DNA of 64,000 bases from Ktedonobacteria bacterium (GTDB taxonomy: Bacteria > Chloroflexota > Ktedonobacteria > Ktedonobacterales > JACDGC01): assembly GCA_027459525.1 (NCBI GenBank), contig DAIDIC010000198.1, forward strand, positions 45,785 to 109,784. Reading direction: 5' to 3'. Below the pieces are notes generated by a model. The model worked only from the letters and a program-made list of their open reading frames with translations. It did not search any database and was not told the DNA's origin. A program made the translations under genes and the position numbers. Positions 11,863-40,989 of this stretch are shown here, one piece after another (the stretch's first letter is position 1; the number at the start of each line of letters is the position of its first letter).

Positions 11863-14800
11863 TTATCCCTGACTCGTATTGATATTTGCTCCTAACATAG
11901 CGTTGCTGTGCTCACTGGGAACGCAGACAATGGAGTTATGGATTGCAATAACCTCGAATTGCTGCGAATAGAATAATTGTTTTGTTTCCGCCGTCATATC
12001 CCAACTTTCCTGTTCGAGAGATTTAAACACAATAAATGGCCGTACATGTTGTAATAGCTGTGTCAAAAACGCTAAACCGCCCGGCATTTGTGAATCATGC
12101 GGTAAAACTACCAGCGCAACGGCGCGGATATCCTTCAGCATAAAGGTAAGTTGAAACAGATTGCTCAAATTTCCAACATGATACACATAGGGTTCGTTTA
12201 CTGCAAATTTTGGCGGCTGTTTATAGAAAAATTCGCCAAATTCCAAATCGGGATACCCCTCAAAAACAACCATCTTTTCCAGTAACTGCAACGATTGGAT
12301 GTTTGCGCGAATAATCGATGCGTTGAATATGTGCGGCTCAAATAAAATCGCTTTATCAATGCGCGCGGTTTGCGTCAACATATGTATAGAATATGCGCCG
12401 GCTCCGGCATCAACATCTATCATAACACTATGCTCCGGCAATATTTGCGCAATGACGCTCAAAGCAGGCGCATCTTTGTGAAAAGCGCGCAGATGTCCGG
12501 CAAAAATTTTATTTGCCAAAATCTGTTTTTCGTTTTGCAGCAAAAATGCAGTCGTTTCCGGTTGAGTCAGAATAACAGCCCTGCCAAAGAAATCTTTATA
12601 TATGTGTATATTTTGAACTGATTCAAGCTGCAGCGCGCCAACATATAAATCTTGCTGCAATTGATCTATAAAAATAAATGTTGTAGTTTTGCCAAGTCCG
12701 GCCTGAATAGATTTAAATAACATGGTTAAGTAAGGTGTGTCATCAGAGTTGAAGTGCAGCCACACCGAAGTCTGCTCATCTGCCGTGTTATTTTCAATAA
12801 TCTGAAATTCGTGGTTATTGCTGACAGAAATACTGTATGGCATAGCAGAATCAATAGATAACGCCGCAAAAACGTCTGCGACAATAAGTTTTCGATGCGT
12901 GGCGTTTTGCAGATAATCTGACAGCTTTTTTATCACCTTGACAGACTCCTGCGGAGCCACAGTGTGCGAGAGATCATCAATATTCTGGGGTAAAGATTGA
13001 TAGATGCGCCCGATTATTTCAATTATCATATCTTGCATATATTCTATACCATGCAACGACGCCTTTACTGAATAGATATGATCTCCATAATCGGTATCTA
13101 ATTGGCTTAATTTTTCTTTTATTGCGTCAATATGGTTGCCATAATCTTGCAGCATAGTATTTAAAGTGTTTTTAAGCGCAACAATATGGTTGCCATAATC
13201 GGTGTCTACTTGGCTTAATTTTTCCTTTATCGCAACAATATGGTCGGATAATTCGTTAACACGATTTTGCAGCGCTTGTGTTTCTTGCAAAAATAATTTG
13301 CGTTGCGGCGGTGTTTGCCTATCATTGCCGGCAAATTCCGGCGTATGTTGCTGTGCCTGCATTAACTTTCTAGTAATCTCATTATACATGGGCTGGCTGC
13401 TGTAATTATATAGCATTTGTTCTTGCAAGTTGCTTAGTTTCGCTTCCAGTTCGGCAACTCTGCCAGTCATTTGACGATATTCATTCAGTGAAATAACATT
13501 AATTGCCGCCTGTTGTTCACTCATCCGTCCAAGAGAAAATACGCGCACAGCAATGCGAAGCAGTGTGCCGATGCCTTTTTGTTTTTTAAAAGGTATCCGT
13601 TGATCACGTGTTCGTGTCCAATCCCATTTATGCAGCAAATCTTGATGAAATTGCGCAAACTCCGATGTATCTGCCGATGTTTGGCTGGGTGAAGGCAAAC
13701 CGGGTTTCGCGTCAATTTCATTTAACCGGTTGATAATAACTTTAGCGGCGGCCGACGCGCTATATTGCCTGCGGATATCTTTTGCCGCAATTTCGCCTTT
13801 TTGCTGCGCTTCTTCCGGATGTTCAAACACATGGCGCATTAACCGCGCGGCGTGTTCAATATTTGGCTCGGCCCAAACAAATCCCGGCTGATATACTTTC
13901 GCGCAATCGGGATGGTAATGATGCTCTTCCAACGTAATTGTGCGGATCTCAAAATCTACCGGATAGGAATTTTCCAGCGTCATATAGTCGGTGTTGCCGG
14001 AATACGCGGTTGCGATAACCGGCTTGCCAAGGTACATAGCCTCTGCCATACCCAAACCAAAACCTTCTGCTCGGTGCAGAGAAACATAGGCGTCGCAGCA
14101 AGCAAGCAAATCATTCATCTGTCTTCGTGTCAGATACGATTCAATAAGCATTCCCCCTACATTTTCCACCGCAGTTTTCAGCGCTTTCCCAAGAATTGGA
14201 TAATTTTCCAAGTTCTGAGATTTGATGATCAGCAGCGGTTTCTCTCCGGGATAGTTCCAGAACGCTTTTTGAAAAGCTTGCACTACACCCAAAGGATTTT
14301 TACGTGATTCACAGGAATTTGCGTCAAATGTAAACAGAAAAATAAACACATTTGGGGGCAGATGAAGTTCTGCTCTATTCGGAGCTTCCGACGCTTCTAT
14401 CAAAATTGGCATTGGAATAACAGTAACAGGCGCTTGTGCGTATGCTTCTAAATTTTGCTTGATAAACGTGGAATTAACCCATATTTCACTCACTCGATGA
14501 ATATGGTCTTTAAAAATATCAGCGACCTTTTCCAATTCCCACGCCCAAAACGCAATAGTATATTTATCTTCAGTCAGCTTAGTAAGCTCGGCGTCATTAA
14601 TCCACGGCATATCATTAATATTGTTTAAAAAAAGATTTATTGGATATGCGGAAGCGCGCGGCAGACCAACAAAACGCGCCGGCAGCGGCTTTTGAGGGTT
14701 CGCGCCGTAATAAATTTTTTCCCGATAGGAAACCGGAATATTTTCCCCTAAAAGCACATCAAATAAACGCGCCGCCGCCGTTACCAAACCAGTTTCGGAA

Positions 14801-21543: not shown

Positions 21544-22305
21544 TTAGTGCGTTATTTCCGCCAGCATTGCGTTTATGGTTTGCAGTGATTGCGCATTAAG
21601 CTGAAAAGAGCGCTCAGAAACAATCATGTTTGCCATTTCCTTGCTCAGATCTACCCGAGGCGCTTCCAGGGTATTAGGGATAAGCCCGCCAAACCCATTT
21701 TGAAACGGCGCTCCGGTTATCGGCGCACCAGAATCCACCGTTGCAGCATAGGTAGTAGACCCTACAGCGCTTAACCCTTGGGGGTTGATAAATCGCGCCA
21801 GCTGCAATTGACCGATATTTTGCTGCTGGCCATTTACCTGCGCTGTTATCTCTCCGGCGCTGGTAACGGTAACTTCCGAAGCTCCGGATGGCAACGTAAT
21901 AGGCGGCTGCACTAATGCGCCGTTGATATTTAATTTGCCGGCGCCGTCAAATCTCAGCGAACCTAAACGAGTATATCCCAATGTTCCACTGGGCTGCAAT
22001 GTTTGAAAATATCCATCACCGCCAATAGTTACATCTAATGGATTTCCGGTTGCCACCGGAGAACCGGGAATTTGCGCATGCGAAGTGCTTTGCAATTGCG
22101 AACCAACACCAATTGCGCTGGTGTTGGCATACGTTGTATTCACCAAATTCCGAGGATCGACTCCTTGATAGATTAAATCGGTGACAATGGGATCCGATGC
22201 GTCGAACCCAAACGTATCTACATTGGCAATATTATTGGACGTAATATTCAACACCTGTTGAGATGATTCCATTCCGCTTACTGAACTGGAATAAATCGGT
22301 AACAT
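21544..22305 (-). CDS. flgG: Flagellar basal-body rod protein, FlgG family
   Basis: N-terminal rod motif SGMESSQQVLNITSNNIANVDTFGF and C-terminal VDLSKEMANMIVSERSFQLNAQSLQTINAML. Confidence 0.85.
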   Translation of the reverse strand: MLPIYSSSVSGMESSQQVLNITSNNIANVDTFGFDASDPIVTDLIYQGVDPRNLVNTTYANTSAIGVGSQLQSTSHAQIPGSPVATGNPLDVTIGGDGYFQTLQPSGTLGYTRLGSLRFDGAGKLNINGALVQPPITLPSGASEVTVTSAGEITAQVNGQQQNIGQLQLARFINPQGLSAVGSTTYAATVDSGAPITGAPFQNGFGGLIPNTLEAPRVDLSKEMANMIVSERSFQLNAQSLQTINAMLAEITH

Positions 22306-22328
22306 ACGTGAACCACTCCTTTGTTATC

Positions 22329-22463
22329 AGGACTTTCGCTTCAGCAGGGAACATCGGGGATAGACAAGGGGCAATGCCCATTGTACAGGGTTCTGGGGTG
22401 TTCCCAGACCTCCCTCTATTTCAGATACGAGAACCATACGCTGCTCTTTCAGGCGAAAGTCCT
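22329..22463 (+). repeat. Copy 1 of a 131-135-nt structured interspersed element (terminal inverted repeat AGGACTTTCG...CGAAAGTCCT)
   Basis: It occupies nearly the whole flgF-flgG intergenic gap. It differs at only 6 of 135 positions from the reverse complement of 38306-38440, and a more diverged copy lies at 39597-39727. Confidence 0.85.
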
Positions 22464-22470
22464 AGTTATA

Positions 22471-23193
22471 TTATTTCGCTATCGAATCTGTCGCTTCCGT
22501 CAGCATTTGATAGGCATATTGCTGCATTTGCGCAGACGCCGAAAATGCCCGCTGCGAAGAGATCATAGATCCTAAAACAGTGGAAAGATTAACATTCGAT
22601 TGCTCCAGCATGCTTTGCCGAATAAAGGTCTGCGGAGCCGCAGATACTGCGCCGGTAGGCGTAAACAGATCTGCGCCGCTTTTTGCCCAGCCAGTAGCGT
22701 TAAATACACCCACCTGGCCAATGGTAGATGTTCCAACCTGAATAACTCCATTTACACTAACGGTAACAGCCTTCCCTTGAAGATCCGGGAACTGAATAGG
22801 AGCTTTGTTTGCGCCAAGCACAACATCGCCATCGGCGTTAACCAGTTGGCCGTTTGCGGCAATGTGAAATGCGCCATTGCGGGTATACATGGTTCCCGTC
22901 GGTGTTTGCAGCGCAAAAAAGCCTGCGCCTTGCAGCGCCATATCAAATGGATTAGTGGTTTGCTGCAATGCGCCTTGTGTTAGATCTAAACTTGTTACCG
23001 TACTTAACACACCGGTGCCACGAACCAACCCCCCCATACCATACGATAGGGGATTGGCCGAGGCCATCAGCATGGAATCAAAATCGCCTTTATATCCAAT
23101 GGTTGCTTGATTCGACACATCATTGGATAACGCGCTAATATCCGTCATTTCGCTGGACATGCCAGCAACAGATGTATAAAAGCTGCGAATCAT
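22471..23193 (-). CDS. flgF: Flagellar basal-body rod protein, FlgF/FlgG family
   Basis: MIRSFYTSVAGMSSEMTDISALSNDVSNQATIGYKGD and C-terminal NLSTVLGSMISSQRAFSASAQMQQ. The assignment FlgF rather than a second FlgG rests on gene order only. Confidence 0.75.
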   Translation of the reverse strand: MIRSFYTSVAGMSSEMTDISALSNDVSNQATIGYKGDFDSMLMASANPLSYGMGGLVRGTGVLSTVTSLDLTQGALQQTTNPFDMALQGAGFFALQTPTGTMYTRNGAFHIAANGQLVNADGDVVLGANKAPIQFPDLQGKAVTVSVNGVIQVGTSTIGQVGVFNATGWAKSGADLFTPTGAVSAAPQTFIRQSMLEQSNVNLSTVLGSMISSQRAFSASAQMQQYAYQMLTEATDSIAK

Positions 23194-30277: not shown

Positions 30278-31276
30278 CTATTTTTTTAACTGAACGCTCT
30301 GTAAGGTCTGGCGAATAGCCAAACGATGAGGCGTAGGTGTAAAAGCGCCAAAAGCTTGCGTAAATTTTGTTGTGTCTACAAGATAGGGGCGATCAAATTC
30401 ATATCGCATTTCATATATTTCCCGCACAATGGGATCAAAAATACCGGCAGCCAGCAGCATCCACGGCGCTATTACCTGAATTTTTACAGAATCACCGCGG
30501 AGTTGTGCGCCGGTTTGCGCAGTATATTCTTCTTGTAATATAGTAAGAAACTGCCGGCCGGTTATTGCTTGCGGAGATGGTATATGCCAAATTTCCCCCA
30601 GCGCTTTTTCTTGCTGCGCCAGTGTAAGCAGTCCTTCGGCAAAATCATCCACGTATATAATGGCGTGAGGTTGATCGGCAGAAACCATCCAGGGCAGAGC
30701 TTTATGATTGCGCAGCGCGTTAATAGTGCGTGTATTGACAATTAAAGAATTAAAGGCGTTAGGCCCGTAATAATCGGGCGCGCAGCCAATGACGGCGCGA
30801 ATACTGCCTTTTTTATGCTCCGCCAATATTTTTTCGCTGAGCTGGGCGCGTATGGCTCCTTTGCGTGTTATAGGCGCATACGGCAAAGCTTCCGTAATTG
30901 ATCCGGCTAATGGCGGATACATATACAAGTTATCAGCTATAATCAGCTGAGCGTTTGCGCGCGCAGCCGCCGCAATAACATTTTCCAGCATGGCTGGCAG
31001 CAGTTCTGCCCATTGGTGATATGGAGCGTTTGCGCAATAATAGATACGCTGAGCGCCATGGCAGGCAGCGATAAGTTCATCTCTATGCAAAACATCCGCC
31101 GGATAGAATTCTGTTTTTCCGTCTTGGCTTATTTCTTGGCGGCAATGGCGGCTTATGGCGCGCGCCGGTATATTTTTAGCTGCAAGCGCCCTAACAACAG
31201 CCGCTCCAATACCGCTGCCGCCGCCAATGACAATTGTTTGCGCAAATGACTGCGAATCCGGTTGCATATATGACAT
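30278..31276 (-). CDS. NAD(P)-binding Rossmann-fold protein (atypical SDR / NAD-dependent epimerase-dehydratase family)
   Basis: N-terminal TIVIGGGSGIGAAVVRAL glycine-rich loop, a ~330-aa length, and an extended-SDR-like layout. Confidence 0.65.
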   Translation of the reverse strand: MSYMQPDSQSFAQTIVIGGGSGIGAAVVRALAAKNIPARAISRHCRQEISQDGKTEFYPADVLHRDELIAACHGAQRIYYCANAPYHQWAELLPAMLENVIAAAARANAQLIIADNLYMYPPLAGSITEALPYAPITRKGAIRAQLSEKILAEHKKGSIRAVIGCAPDYYGPNAFNSLIVNTRTINALRNHKALPWMVSADQPHAIIYVDDFAEGLLTLAQQEKALGEIWHIPSPQAITGRQFLTILQEEYTAQTGAQLRGDSVKIQVIAPWMLLAAGIFDPIVREIYEMRYEFDRPYLVDTTKFTQAFGAFTPTPHRLAIRQTLQSVQLKK

Positions 31277-38200: not shown

Positions 38201-38240
38201 TATTTGATTGAGCGCATAAAATGCATTGCGCTCTTCTCAG

Positions 38241-38274
38241 CGCCGCGCAAGCAACATCTATACCTTGCGCGGCG
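38241..38274 (+). terminator. Terminator-like hairpin downstream of hmgA
   Basis: An 11-bp GC-rich stem (CGCCGCGCAAG / CTTGCGCGGCG) is followed only by TTTG, so the U-tract is weak. Confidence 0.4.
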
Positions 38275-38305
38275 TTTGCGCTCTTCTCAAACTTCTTTTT
38301 TCAGT

Positions 38306-38440
38306 AGGACTTTCGATTGAAAGAGCAGCGCATGGTTCTCGTATCTGAAACAGAGGGAGGTCTGGGGACACCCCAGAACCCCGTACAATGGGCATTGCCC
38401 CTTGTCTATCCCCGATGTTCCCTGCTGAAGCGAAAGTCCT
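38306..38440 (-). repeat. Copy 2 of the structured interspersed element (inverted orientation)
   Basis: The reverse complement matches copy 1 at 129 of 135 positions. One of the six differences converts a G-T (G-U) pair into G-C in the second hairpin. Confidence 0.85.
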
Positions 38441-38615
38441 GTTAAGATAACTATCGCAGTCAAACAGCAGCGCTGCAGAAATTCCGCCGGCGCAGTTTGC
38501 GAATGGACCGGCAAGACGCCATTTTTTCCATCACAAAAATTTTTGAGAGCCTTGTCAAGATACCTATCTCATGATATCTTAGTTACGCAGGGCAGGCAGA
38601 TAGCCTTCCGATCAG

Positions 38616-39551
38616 ATGGATAAAGCAAAGGAGAAAAACATGGCGTTTTTATGGTTTGGGCGGCGTCCCAAAAATGTAATCGTTGTACAGGAAAAACCAG
38701 CGCCAAGATTTACTGTATTTGCCGGGCAACGGCGTTTGGCAAACAATCCCTATATTCTTCCAAAAGATTTAACGGAAGTAAAACGACTGGATTTTCAGCA
38801 TTTTGTATTAAAATATGGCATTCACGGCAATTATCTCGCGCCCATATCACAGCCAACAGCTATATTAGATGTGGGTTGCGGCACCGGACGATGGGCAATG
38901 GAAATGGCCAGAGATTTTCCTGGCGCTAAAGTCTATGGCCTCGATGTGGTTGCTGCGGAAGATTTTACTATCGGTTATGGCCTTCAGTATAAACCGCAAA
39001 ACTATACTTTTTTAGAAGGAGATGCGCTAAAACCGTTGCCATTCCCCGATAATACATTTGATTTTACCCATCAACGGCTTCTTATCGGCGCAGTTCCAAT
39101 GGGAAAATGGCCGGAAATTATTCAAGAATTAAAGCGAGTTACACGCCCAGGCGGCTGGATAGAACTGGCTGAATGCGGTGTGCCGCGAGATGAACCCGGA
39201 AAGCCCTATCCTCAGCTTTGGAGCACATGGATAGATTTTAGCAAGAGCCGCAATGTTGATTTTACTATGGGCAGCAGTATCGGGCAGTTATTGCGCAATG
39301 GGCAATTGGCGCAGGTAAAGCAGCACGAAATTATCTTCCCTATGGGGAATTATGGCGGACACATCGGCCTCATGTCTGCAACTGATTGTTTGGCAATGGG
39401 CAGAACTATGAAAAATCCGGTTATTACCAAGGGCATTATCGATGAAAAGACCTATGACACACTCTATAATGCAACTGAGCAAGAATTTAATATGAAAATC
39501 GGTAAAGGTGTTCTGCCATTTTATATTGCCTATGCCCAAAAACCGCTTTAA
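38616..39551 (+). CDS. Class I SAM-dependent methyltransferase
   Basis: Motif I ILDVGCGTGRWAMEMA, post-I YGLDV, and later FDFTHQRLL. ATG 38640 is an alternative start. Confidence 0.75.
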   Translation: MDKAKEKNMAFLWFGRRPKNVIVVQEKPAPRFTVFAGQRRLANNPYILPKDLTEVKRLDFQHFVLKYGIHGNYLAPISQPTAILDVGCGTGRWAMEMARDFPGAKVYGLDVVAAEDFTIGYGLQYKPQNYTFLEGDALKPLPFPDNTFDFTHQRLLIGAVPMGKWPEIIQELKRVTRPGGWIELAECGVPRDEPGKPYPQLWSTWIDFSKSRNVDFTMGSSIGQLLRNGQLAQVKQHEIIFPMGNYGGHIGLMSATDCLAMGRTMKNPVITKGIIDEKTYDTLYNATEQEFNMKIGKGVLPFYIAYAQKPL

Positions 39552-39596
39552 AGCAGCGCGCAGTACGCCGAAACCTCTATAGGAGCCAATAGCATC

Positions 39597-39727
39597 AGGA
39601 CTTTCGCTTCAACAGGGAAAATCGGAGATGTACAAAGGGTGTTGCTCCTTGTACGGGATCTGGGGCGCCCCAGATCCCCTTATTTCAGCTGCAAGAAACA
39701 TGCGCTGCTCTTTCAAACAAAAGTCCT
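39597..39727 (+). repeat. Copy 3 of the structured interspersed element (diverged, direct orientation)
   Basis: It has the same termini (AGGACTTTCGCTTCA...GCTGCTCTTTCAA...AAAGTCCT). Both internal hairpins are retained through different sequences (GTACAAAGG...CCTTGTAC; the 24-nt palindrome GGGATCTGGGGCGCCCCAGATCCC). Confidence 0.8.
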
Positions 39728-39824
39728 AAATATATTGGATTCGCTGTAACTGGTAGATGTTCAACAATATGTTTACCGGGTGACAACTCCCCATCGCTAA
39801 AGTCAGAGGACTACGCGCGTTTAC

Positions 39825-40279: not shown

Positions 40280-40318
40280 CAAAAATCCAAAAATTCAAAA
40301 ATCCAAAAATTCAAAAAT
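40280..40318. repeat. A-tract microrepeat, CAAAAAT(C/T) x5 (equivalently a 16-nt unit x2.4)
   Basis: ACAAAAATCCAAAAATTCAAAAATCCAAAAATTCAAAAATC read directly. It sits between the two divergent promoters. Confidence 0.8.
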
Positions 40319-40420
40319 CTGCTGTTTTGAGTGATGTATATTGCATCCGGCGACGGTTATTGGCTGTTCAGTCAAGATTTGTAAAATAATATGCTTTTGT
40401 TAAAAACATGTTAAAAACTC

Positions 40421-40449
40421 TTGACTATAAGGGCCAAAATATGTATAAT
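40421..40449 (+). promoter_or_regulatory. Near-consensus sigma-70 promoter (TTGACT-17-TATAAT)
   Basis: TTGACT at 40421-40426, a 17-nt spacer, and TATAAT at 40444-40449. No annotated gene lies downstream for 540 nt. Confidence 0.6.
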
Positions 40450-40534
40450 AAGAGTGTAGTGATACTGATACACATGTTACTGCACATCATTCCCTGATGT
40501 TAAACTGTGCACCTTTATCTACGAAAGGAGCGAC

Positions 40535-40597
40535 ATGCCTATGGTCACCCTTAAGAAACCAATCCGTGTATTTGGAGTGGTATATCAAGTTGATTGA
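40535..40597 (+). CDS. Candidate 20-aa small ORF (MPMVTLKKPIRVFGVVYQVD)
   Basis: ATG 40535 lies 5 nt after AAAGGAG (40524-40530) and the stop TGA is at 40595-40597. No family recognised, and translation is unproven. Confidence 0.3.
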   Translation: MPMVTLKKPIRVFGVVYQVD

Positions 40598-40754
40598 GCA
40601 TACCCGTTCTGGCGGGTTCTGGCTCCACTTTTCAGGTGGCATGCGATGACTTTAGTTCTCGCAGCAGAGCATTTAGTGTTTATTCACTAACATCTGCGAG
40701 TAGCAGGCAAGATTATACCGTCCGCATACACATGTAAAGGCTTTGAAGCGATAT

Positions 40755-40791
40755 TCCGTCCGCTCGCACGATGCGCCGGACGGATTTTTTT
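40755..40791 (+). terminator. Strong intrinsic terminator
   Basis: TCCGTCCG-CT-CGCA-CGA-TGCG-C-CGGACGGA is followed by TTTTTTT (40785-40791). Confidence 0.7.
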
Positions 40792-40989
40792 GCTCTAAAA
40801 ACTGTTATTGCTTCCCCTATTCATTTGTTTCCCGCCACATCGGCTCAAAACGTTACACAGTGTTTTTGCCGCTTTCAGATATCCATGCTTGATTGTAGTA
40901 TTTTTCCCGCAAAAGATGTATACTGTTCATAACACACGCTGTCAATTCATTTCTGTTCCAGATTTTTTTACGAAAGAGGATGATGTTTT

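Follow-up and report, generated by a model that had tools for sequence, protein, structure and literature searches.

Between two flagellar rod genes of the window (the whole stretch of 64,000 nucleotides analysed here) lies a short repeated sequence with internal hairpins, and the question raised by this locus is whether it is an RNA signal of the operon or a mobile piece of DNA. The earlier note listed among its interpretations an RNA processing or stability element, an attenuator and a MITE/REP-like selfish insertion. The results described below supported the selfish insertion and did not support the RNA element as the identity of the sequence. We conclude with high confidence that it is a 137-bp non-coding, non-autonomous DNA transposon (MITE) with 12-bp ends of the IS701 family, in the ISAba11/ISPlag1-like group. 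A concrete identity, that of an ISAba11/ISPlag1-type MITE whose target duplication is 5 bp long, takes the place of a candidate 'novel structured RNA'. The element is new, yet of a known type, and its only less ordinary aspect is a double-hairpin core with modest covariation.

Copies and borders of the element

The two rod genes are on the minus strand. The gene upstream of the insertion encodes a FlgF-like rod protein of 240 aa (22471-23193; Pfam LlgE_F_G_D1 and Flg_bbr_C), and the gene downstream encodes a FlgG-like rod protein of 253 aa (21544-22305). Pfam identified both as flagellar rod proteins of the FlgE/F/G type, and the closest named homologues are called FlgG. The gap between them had been described as 165 nt long and nearly filled by the element, which is correct (22306-22470).

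Alignment of the copies showed that the conserved unit is 137 bp (22328-22464) with the ends CAGGAC...GTCCTA; the 135-nt extent given before had the right place, with borders one base short on each side. The window contains three copies in both orientations. Copy 1 (22328-22464, plus strand, 137 bp) follows the flgF-like stop codon and precedes the flgG-like Shine-Dalgarno sequence. Copy 2 (38305-38441, minus strand, 137 bp) is inverted and 95.6% identical to copy 1, and is located between an HgmA-like gene and a methyltransferase gene. Copy 3 (39596-39728, plus strand, 133 bp) is about 80% identical to copy 1, has two deletions of 1 nt and 3 nt, and is located between the convergent methyltransferase and HTH genes. 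The two further copies had been recognized before, and both were recovered by repeat finding, alignment and BLAST. When a covariance model built from the three copies was run on the window and about 157 kb of related loci, it returned exactly these three full-length matches, with E values of 1e-36 to 4e-46.

The perfect 11-bp terminal inverted repeat (TIR) noticed earlier is present (AGGACTTTCGC...GCGAAAGTCCT), and the TIRs of the copies extend over 12 bp (YAGGACTTTCGC). In copy 1 the left TIR (22328-22339, plus strand) is CAGGACTTTCGC, which matches the termini of IS701-family insertion sequences (ISs), and the right TIR (22453-22464) reads TAGGACTTTCGC on the minus strand. All three window copies have both IS-type termini at identical spacing; in copy 3 the right TIR has decayed to ACAAAAGTCCTA. 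The 10-mer AGGACTTTCG occurred seven times with at most one mismatch, against 2.0 occurrences expected, and six of the seven were element ends. The two internal hairpins were found where they had been placed, hairpin 1 at 22364-22384 (ACAAGGGGCAATGCCCATTGT; 'hairpin B' of the core module described below) and hairpin 2 at 22392-22408 (TCTGGGGTGTTCCCAGA; 'hairpin A' of that module), the latter followed on the plus strand by a weak U-rich tail.

The element has no coding capacity. A protein search with the concatenated six-frame translations of copies 1 and 3 found no homologues of its open frames among 5.8 billion proteins, and the similar 'proteins' in the ORF track are, as the earlier note had said, artefacts of the repeat. 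Repeats of this kind yield spurious ORF calls and also break metagenome assemblies, with several contigs ending or diverging at them. Because it has no transposase and no coding capacity, the element is not an IS itself but rather a derivative or a hitch-hiker of one. Three independently decayed ISs were ruled out by the common internal sequence and length of the copies. No match to the element was found in phage and plasmid collections by blastn.

Filled and empty flgF-flgG spacers

The exact FlgG protein of the window occurred in two other assemblies, and the element was present in both. In a sister species FlgG is 96% identical at the amino acid level, and the flgF and flgG genes are 87-88% identical at the nucleotide level. 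There the flgF-flgG spacer is 23 nt long (GAAATAATAAAACAAAGGAG) and contains no element in all six contigs examined. The window junction reads GAAATAAT-ATAAC-[137 bp]-ATAAC-AAAGGAG. The two spacers, 165 and 23 nt, thus differ by 142 nt, the length of the 137-bp element plus a 5-bp duplication, and removing the element and one GTTAT from the filled junction gives the empty site of the sister species, with one base different (GTTTT). The left copy of the duplication, GTTAT at 22323-22327, directly abuts the flgG-like Shine-Dalgarno sequence AAAGGAG (22316-22322 on the plus strand); the right copy, GTTAT at 22465-22469, is 1 nt from the flgF-like stop codon (22471-22473). The earlier statement that there is no obvious target-site duplication was wrong, because the element and one ATAAC together account exactly for the 142 nt, and the empty site agrees.

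The nearest FlgG outside the two sister species is only 63% identical, and in that distant relative the spacer is 62 nt and also without the element. The orthologous flgF-flgG junctions of these two relatives, a check that had been named earlier, therefore lack it. These junctions bear directly on the alternative of a structured RNA dedicated to the rod operon, which would act in cis as an attenuator or as a processing or stability element and be kept by selection on its structure. The operons of both relatives have rod-gene spacers without it, and the other copies in the window are beside unrelated genes (HgmA-like, methyltransferase and HTH), all of which argues against such a dedicated function. 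The insertion is recent, and the element belongs to an ordinary kind of selfish DNA and is no dedicated regulatory RNA.

Copies 2 and 3 are likewise missing from the sister species. No base-precise empty site was obtainable for them there, because the intergenic DNA of the sister species at these positions is too diverged. The 5-nt flanks match at four of five positions for copy 2 (TTCAG/TTAAG) and at three of five for copy 3 (AGCAT/AATAT). Copies 2 and 3 are inverted around the methyltransferase gene (38616-39551), and we considered that they could form a composite transposon. This was rejected: the bracketing is coincidental, because the sister species has the methyltransferase gene in place without the elements.

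Two further differences from the sister species were seen in the same part of the window. About 100 nt abutting copy 2 (38204-38304) are missing from the sister species and contain a hairpin (GCCGCGCAAG...CTTGCGCGGC) with the direct repeat TTGCGCTCTTCTCA on either side; this segment could be a terminator region or one more small insertion. Short tandem AAAAATYC octamers just upstream of the HTH gene start (40283-40320) are also not in the sister species.

A MITE within an operon has a precedent in Chunjie of Geobacter uraniireducens (Chen et al. 2008, in PMC10969869), which, as the review describes it, has TIRs and direct repeats and was recently active. According to the same description, Chunjie is like the present element in that it is inside an operon and leaves the operon structure undamaged. 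The two are unrelated in sequence, and Chunjie, compared here by the review's description alone, is longer (178-235 bp).

Ends of the IS701 family

A scan of the fetched loci for the terminal 10-mer gave one match outside the element, in the sister-species contig L015, 4.3 kb past the HTH gene. There TAGGACTTTCGC is followed, 32 nt on, by an ORF that is truncated by the contig end and matched the NCBIfam model NF049921 (IS701 family transposase) with an E value of 1.2e-37. Further ISs were obtained by a protein search for homologues of this transposase fragment, with the DNA fetched alongside, and every fetched homologue was bounded by the same terminal sequence. They include an IS at 1140-2203 of L020, whose transposase is in two ORFs scoring 232 and 104 bits on NF049921 (cut-off 250) and covering model positions 2-317; the left end of an IS in L021; a 1062-bp IS with a frameshifted gene in L030; a 674-bp IS with an internal deletion in L031; and an IS broken by another IS in L032. 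The ISs in L015, L020, L021, L030 and L032 start with the same 12 nt as the right TIR of the element, and ends of 12-14 nt are common to the element and the IS701-family ISs of these five contigs and L031. In total, such ends are equal over 12-14 nt in at least nine independent ISs.

Short non-coding derivatives with the same ends were also found. L020 contains one of 159 bp (2210-2368) with both ends and a perfect 5-bp duplication, GAGAA, and L021 contains one of 104 bp (535-638) with both ends. Their positions were observed in the unrelated metagenome GCA_009712145.1: the 159-bp MITE is 6 bp from the right end of the full-length IS (both within L020 1140-2368), and the 104-bp MITE interrupts the transposase gene of another IS copy (L021 135-638). 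Elements with the same ends appear to insert beside or into one another.

Complete plasmid records also contain ISs of this transposase family; they end in TAGGACTTACGCA and have clean AT-rich duplications of 5 bp. ISAba11 of A. baumannii pAB3 has the TIR TAGGACTTACGCA and the duplication CATAT; ISs with the same TAGGACTTACGCA are flanked by TATAT in Spirosoma linguale pSLIN01 and by AATTA in Chondrinema litorale. ISAba11 has been described to yield a 'characteristic 5-bp direct repeat' (PMC7885321), and members of IS701 produce duplications of 4 or 5 bp (PMC8024623; PMC2266710). The TIR of ISPlag1, which belongs to the IS701 group, starts with CAGGACTTACGCA, and remnants of 197 bp that keep both TIRs are documented (PMC2464740). 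The terminal pattern YAGGACTT(A/T)CGC is found in ISAba11 (pAB3), the Spirosoma and Chondrinema ISs and ISPlag1 (the last from PMC2464740), and ACT at end positions 5-7 agrees with the IS701 end consensus ---YACT (PMC2266710). The duplication of the element, GTTAT, is 5 bp and has the 4-5-bp AT-rich character of the IS701 group.

The likeness to ISAba11 and ISPlag1 is therefore close at the termini, where C/TAGGACTTTCGC of the MITE, TAGGACTTACGCA of ISAba11 and CAGGACTTACGCA of ISPlag1 (PMC2464740) are nearly identical, and in the 5-bp AT-rich target duplication shared by the element and ISAba11-type ISs (PMC7885321). The short element also resembles the 197-bp ISPlag1 remnants with both TIRs (PMC2464740). 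It differs from these ISs, which are about 1.05-1.3 kb, in being 137 bp without a transposase gene. Its interior is not detectably IS-derived, with a double-hairpin module shared with another repeat family, and its host is an uncultured lineage, in contrast to Acinetobacter (ISAba11) or Planktothrix (ISPlag1).

The MITE-IS likeness is confined to the 12-14 terminal bases; subterminal homology of the MITE arms to the IS ends was rejected, since uncorrected p values of 0.01-0.15 are suggestive and do not reach significance once multiple testing is taken into account. Neither a full-length IS nor a transposase gene was found in the 64-kb window or in about 3 kb of additional DNA of the same species, while the partner IS was found in the sister species and other organisms. 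Three metagenomic IS-sized copies (L020, L030 and L031), all with broken or deleted transposase genes, had no recognizable duplications. DNA scans for AGGACTTTCGNTTCANCAGGGA gave one match in the genome collection, inside a high-G+C coding region (L003), one in the metagenome collection, with no second terminus (L004), and none in the viral collection; about one match is expected, and the L003 and L004 matches were dismissed as chance.

Samples that contain the sister species also contained a heavily decayed IS701-like pseudo-IS (L022-L029; for example L023 840-1900) with many stop codons and degenerate ends (TAGAATCTTCGTT / AGCGAAAGTTCCTG). Its state suggests that this IS family has long been resident in the clade.

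The earlier note had raised the possibility that the element is only a fragment of a known IS. This is essentially what was found, because the termini are IS ends of the IS701/ISAba11/ISPlag1 type. The features of a MITE were found in the element: TIRs on a short non-coding unit, a 5-bp duplication, dispersed copies, presence/absence polymorphism and termini shared with ISs. From the dispersed TIR copies, the 5-bp-duplicating insertion and the IS701-family termini, we infer that the element is a MITE with IS701/ISAba11/ISPlag1-type ends.

In the proposed mechanism, the 12-bp termini YAGGACTTTCGC would serve as the binding and cleavage ends for an IS701-family DDE transposase. The transposase would come from another place, encoded by a full-length IS that has such ends, and would recognize both ends of the element (mobilization in trans). 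It would insert the element into AT-rich DNA through a 5-bp staggered cut, the repair of which would leave the 5-bp duplication. Copy 1 landed in the 23-nt rod-gene spacer, separating the two genes and breaking neither. Neither IS701 nor ISAba11 appears in the 2024 review of prokaryotic MITEs consulted here (PMC10969869). The IS701 family, which has short derivatives in two further metagenomic contigs as well, may therefore extend the catalogue of IS families that spawn MITEs.

The double-hairpin core and the operon transcript

The folding energies of the two strands of the element are -53.5 and -48.4 kcal/mol, and both strands fold better than shuffled sequences (z = -3.7 and -3.4, respectively), as would be expected of a cis-acting RNA; much of this stability is that of the TIR stem, which is common to any TIR element. 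The earlier note had pointed to selection on RNA or single-stranded DNA structure from changes that preserve the hairpins across copies. The G-T to G-C change in a hairpin of copy 2 is correct, while the 'completely different but still self-complementary stems' of copy 3 were overstated, the changes there being mostly one-sided or in loops. RNAalifold found no compensatory double changes among the three copies (0 of 45 pairs), and the covariation term was unfavourable, in disagreement with the covariation that had been proposed. Rfam 15 had no match to the element at the gathering threshold or at E values up to 10, and none around copies 2 and 3 at E values up to 1, in line with the earlier impression that no RNA family fits. 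Because the sister spacer is empty, the contexts are unrelated, no compensatory changes occur among the copies and Rfam gives no match, the dedicated RNA reading is not supported.

The central part of the element, about 50 nt with both hairpins, is homologous to a module of the sister species that has no IS ends. We found this module in three settings: as 88-nt tandem units in 2.7 copies (TRF period 88; L014 13147-13389), downstream of a repeated sequence of about 313 nt at no fewer than three loci, and on both sides of a 1.8-kb AbiEii-like insert. The 88-nt units lie downstream of ResB and GT2 genes, and their minus-strand order, hairpin-hairpin-AUAUCUUUUUAU, resembles a terminator. When seven sister-species core modules were aligned with the three window copies, three of the 11 pairs of hairpin B were changed on both sides (A-U/G-C, U-A/C-G and C-G/U-A). 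Among 500 shuffles one or two reached the observed values, for a set of ten cores that are few and related. The covariation of hairpin B appears only once the sister-species cores are added. It is suggestive and short of proof, and a structure-constrained, REP/terminator-like core captured by the IS ends would be compatible with it. The proposal of selection on RNA or single-stranded DNA structure may hold for one hairpin with the sister cores included, and not as the identity of the element.

The shared double-hairpin core and its covariation go beyond what a simple 'decayed IS' ancestry explains. Because the core is shared and shows modest covariation, the MITE could be chimeric, with IS701-type ends that captured the ~50-nt double-hairpin module, itself an independently propagating, structure-selected repeat of the clade. 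If so, non-autonomous elements of this lineage exchange functional hairpin modules, and the flgF-flgG copy would deliver an RNA-level processing or stability signal that uncouples the expression of the proximal and distal rod proteins. We regard this extended reading as rather unlikely.

The core also resembles SPRITE/REP-type repeats, which are small, G+C-rich, palindromic and intergenic; in the sister units a U-tract follows it. It could then be that the sequence is a REP/BIME- or terminator-like host repeat spread by a non-DDE route (such as a RAYT-type enzyme or recombination), in which the central double hairpin is functional and the IS-like termini are incidental. The recurrence of the ~50-nt core without IS termini in the sister species, in the 88-nt tandem units and at the flanks of the AbiEii-like insert, fits this proposal, as do the hairpin-hairpin-U-tract arrangement of the sister units on one strand and hairpin 2 of copy 3, which with its 10-bp stem and CUUAUUUC is weakly terminator-like in the sense orientation of the methyltransferase gene. 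It has to explain, however, why all three window copies keep both IS-type termini at the same spacing, why copy 1 inserted as exactly 137 + 5 bp, and why its termini equal the IS701-family ends of so many independent ISs over 12-14 nt. To our knowledge REP and SPRITE-type repeats have neither TIRs nor duplications, whereas the window copies carry TIRs and a target duplication, and no RAYT gene was seen in the DNA analysed. We consider this origin very improbable, and a MITE with IS701-type ends remains the preferred identity. No sequence similarity of the element to any named repeat family was found, Rfam included.

The sister-species repeats have features of their own. The ~313-nt repeat is followed by one to three 88-nt units (L014 12834-13389, L005 1619-2010, L013 12834-13212 and L026 3192-3360), and the contigs L013, L014 and L015 diverge right behind this arrangement, which may represent a second non-autonomous element, larger in size, whose ends are imperfect (GATCTTTGATATTTTAAT...). 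At the place of the window junction near 30278, L005 has a 1.8-kb insert (343-2175) between the epimerase gene and fliQ, which is missing from the window. The insert encodes an AbiEii-like toxin (228 aa; Pfam E value 1.7e-4, just under the cut-off) and a 73-aa protein, and has at its flanks two hairpin modules and a duplicated 42-nt stretch of the epimerase 3' end. The core flanking this toxin-antitoxin insert gave the idea of an integron attC site; it was rejected because the element ends are IS701 TIRs with a 5-bp duplication, and no R'/R'' (GTTRRRY) pair was seen on inspection.

The operon mRNA, transcribed from the minus strand, carries the reverse complement of copy 1. The insertion is 1 nt past the flgF-like stop codon, and its 3' duplication abuts AAAGGAG, which is unchanged from the sister species. 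In the predicted fold of the sense transcript, the 12-bp terminal stem is closed and the Shine-Dalgarno sequence lies outside the stem. No terminator-like or promoter-like site was found in the sense orientation at flgF-flgG, and no outward promoters were found in the element; the sole hairpin with a U-rich tail at flgF-flgG is on the antisense (plus) strand. The operon probably tolerates the insertion, since a hairpin-plus-U-tract is missing from the strand that enters the sense transcript. In copies 1 and 2 it is the same strand that is read into the sense transcripts of their neighbours, and the orientation pattern of the three copies is only a hint of selection against polar insertions.

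Correia of Neisseria and ERIC/IRU of Yersinia and enterobacteria are, like the element, TIR-bounded intergenic repeats of about 100-150 bp with long hairpins (PMC10969869). They are co-transcribed with their neighbours and can change mRNA processing or decay, with effects of RNase III or RNase E (PMC10969869). They have other termini than the element, whose terminal duplex is 12 bp, and their RNase effects were shown experimentally. The TIRs of Correia and ERIC are longer, and their duplications are TA. By analogy, the folded element in the mRNA (-48 kcal/mol) could act as a processing or stability site, and an effect of RNase III or RNase E at flgF-flgG is plausible.

The cleavage of MITEs by RNase III and their influence on mRNA decay, as in Correia and ERIC (PMC10969869), would be compatible with a cis-acting RNA, as would the three doubly changed pairs of hairpin B and the common strand exposed by copies 1 and 2. 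The terminal duplex of 12 bp is short for RNase III, and the sense orientation at flgF-flgG has no terminator-like site; together with the empty spacers, the unrelated neighbours of the other copies, the 0 of 45 compensatory pairs and the empty Rfam search, these make a dedicated RNA of the rod operon very improbable. The filled and the empty flgF-flgG junctions amount to a natural experiment between two close species, on a -48 kcal/mol hairpin placed 5 nt upstream of the ribosome-binding site in a tightly stoichiometric operon.

Two other segments of the window were noted in the course of this work. In the segment at 40420-40795, for which Rfam had no match, a promoter-like TTGACT-17-TATAAT precedes an ORF of 20 aa (40535-40597) that has a strong Shine-Dalgarno sequence. 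Next come about 200 nt of non-coding DNA and a strong hairpin with a T-run terminator (about 40755-40795); this could be a small protein, leader or sRNA locus. At 13076-13254, three 54-nt tandem repeats, 75-85% identical, lie in the gene for a 1410-aa GT4 glycosyltransferase and presumably form an in-frame coding repeat.
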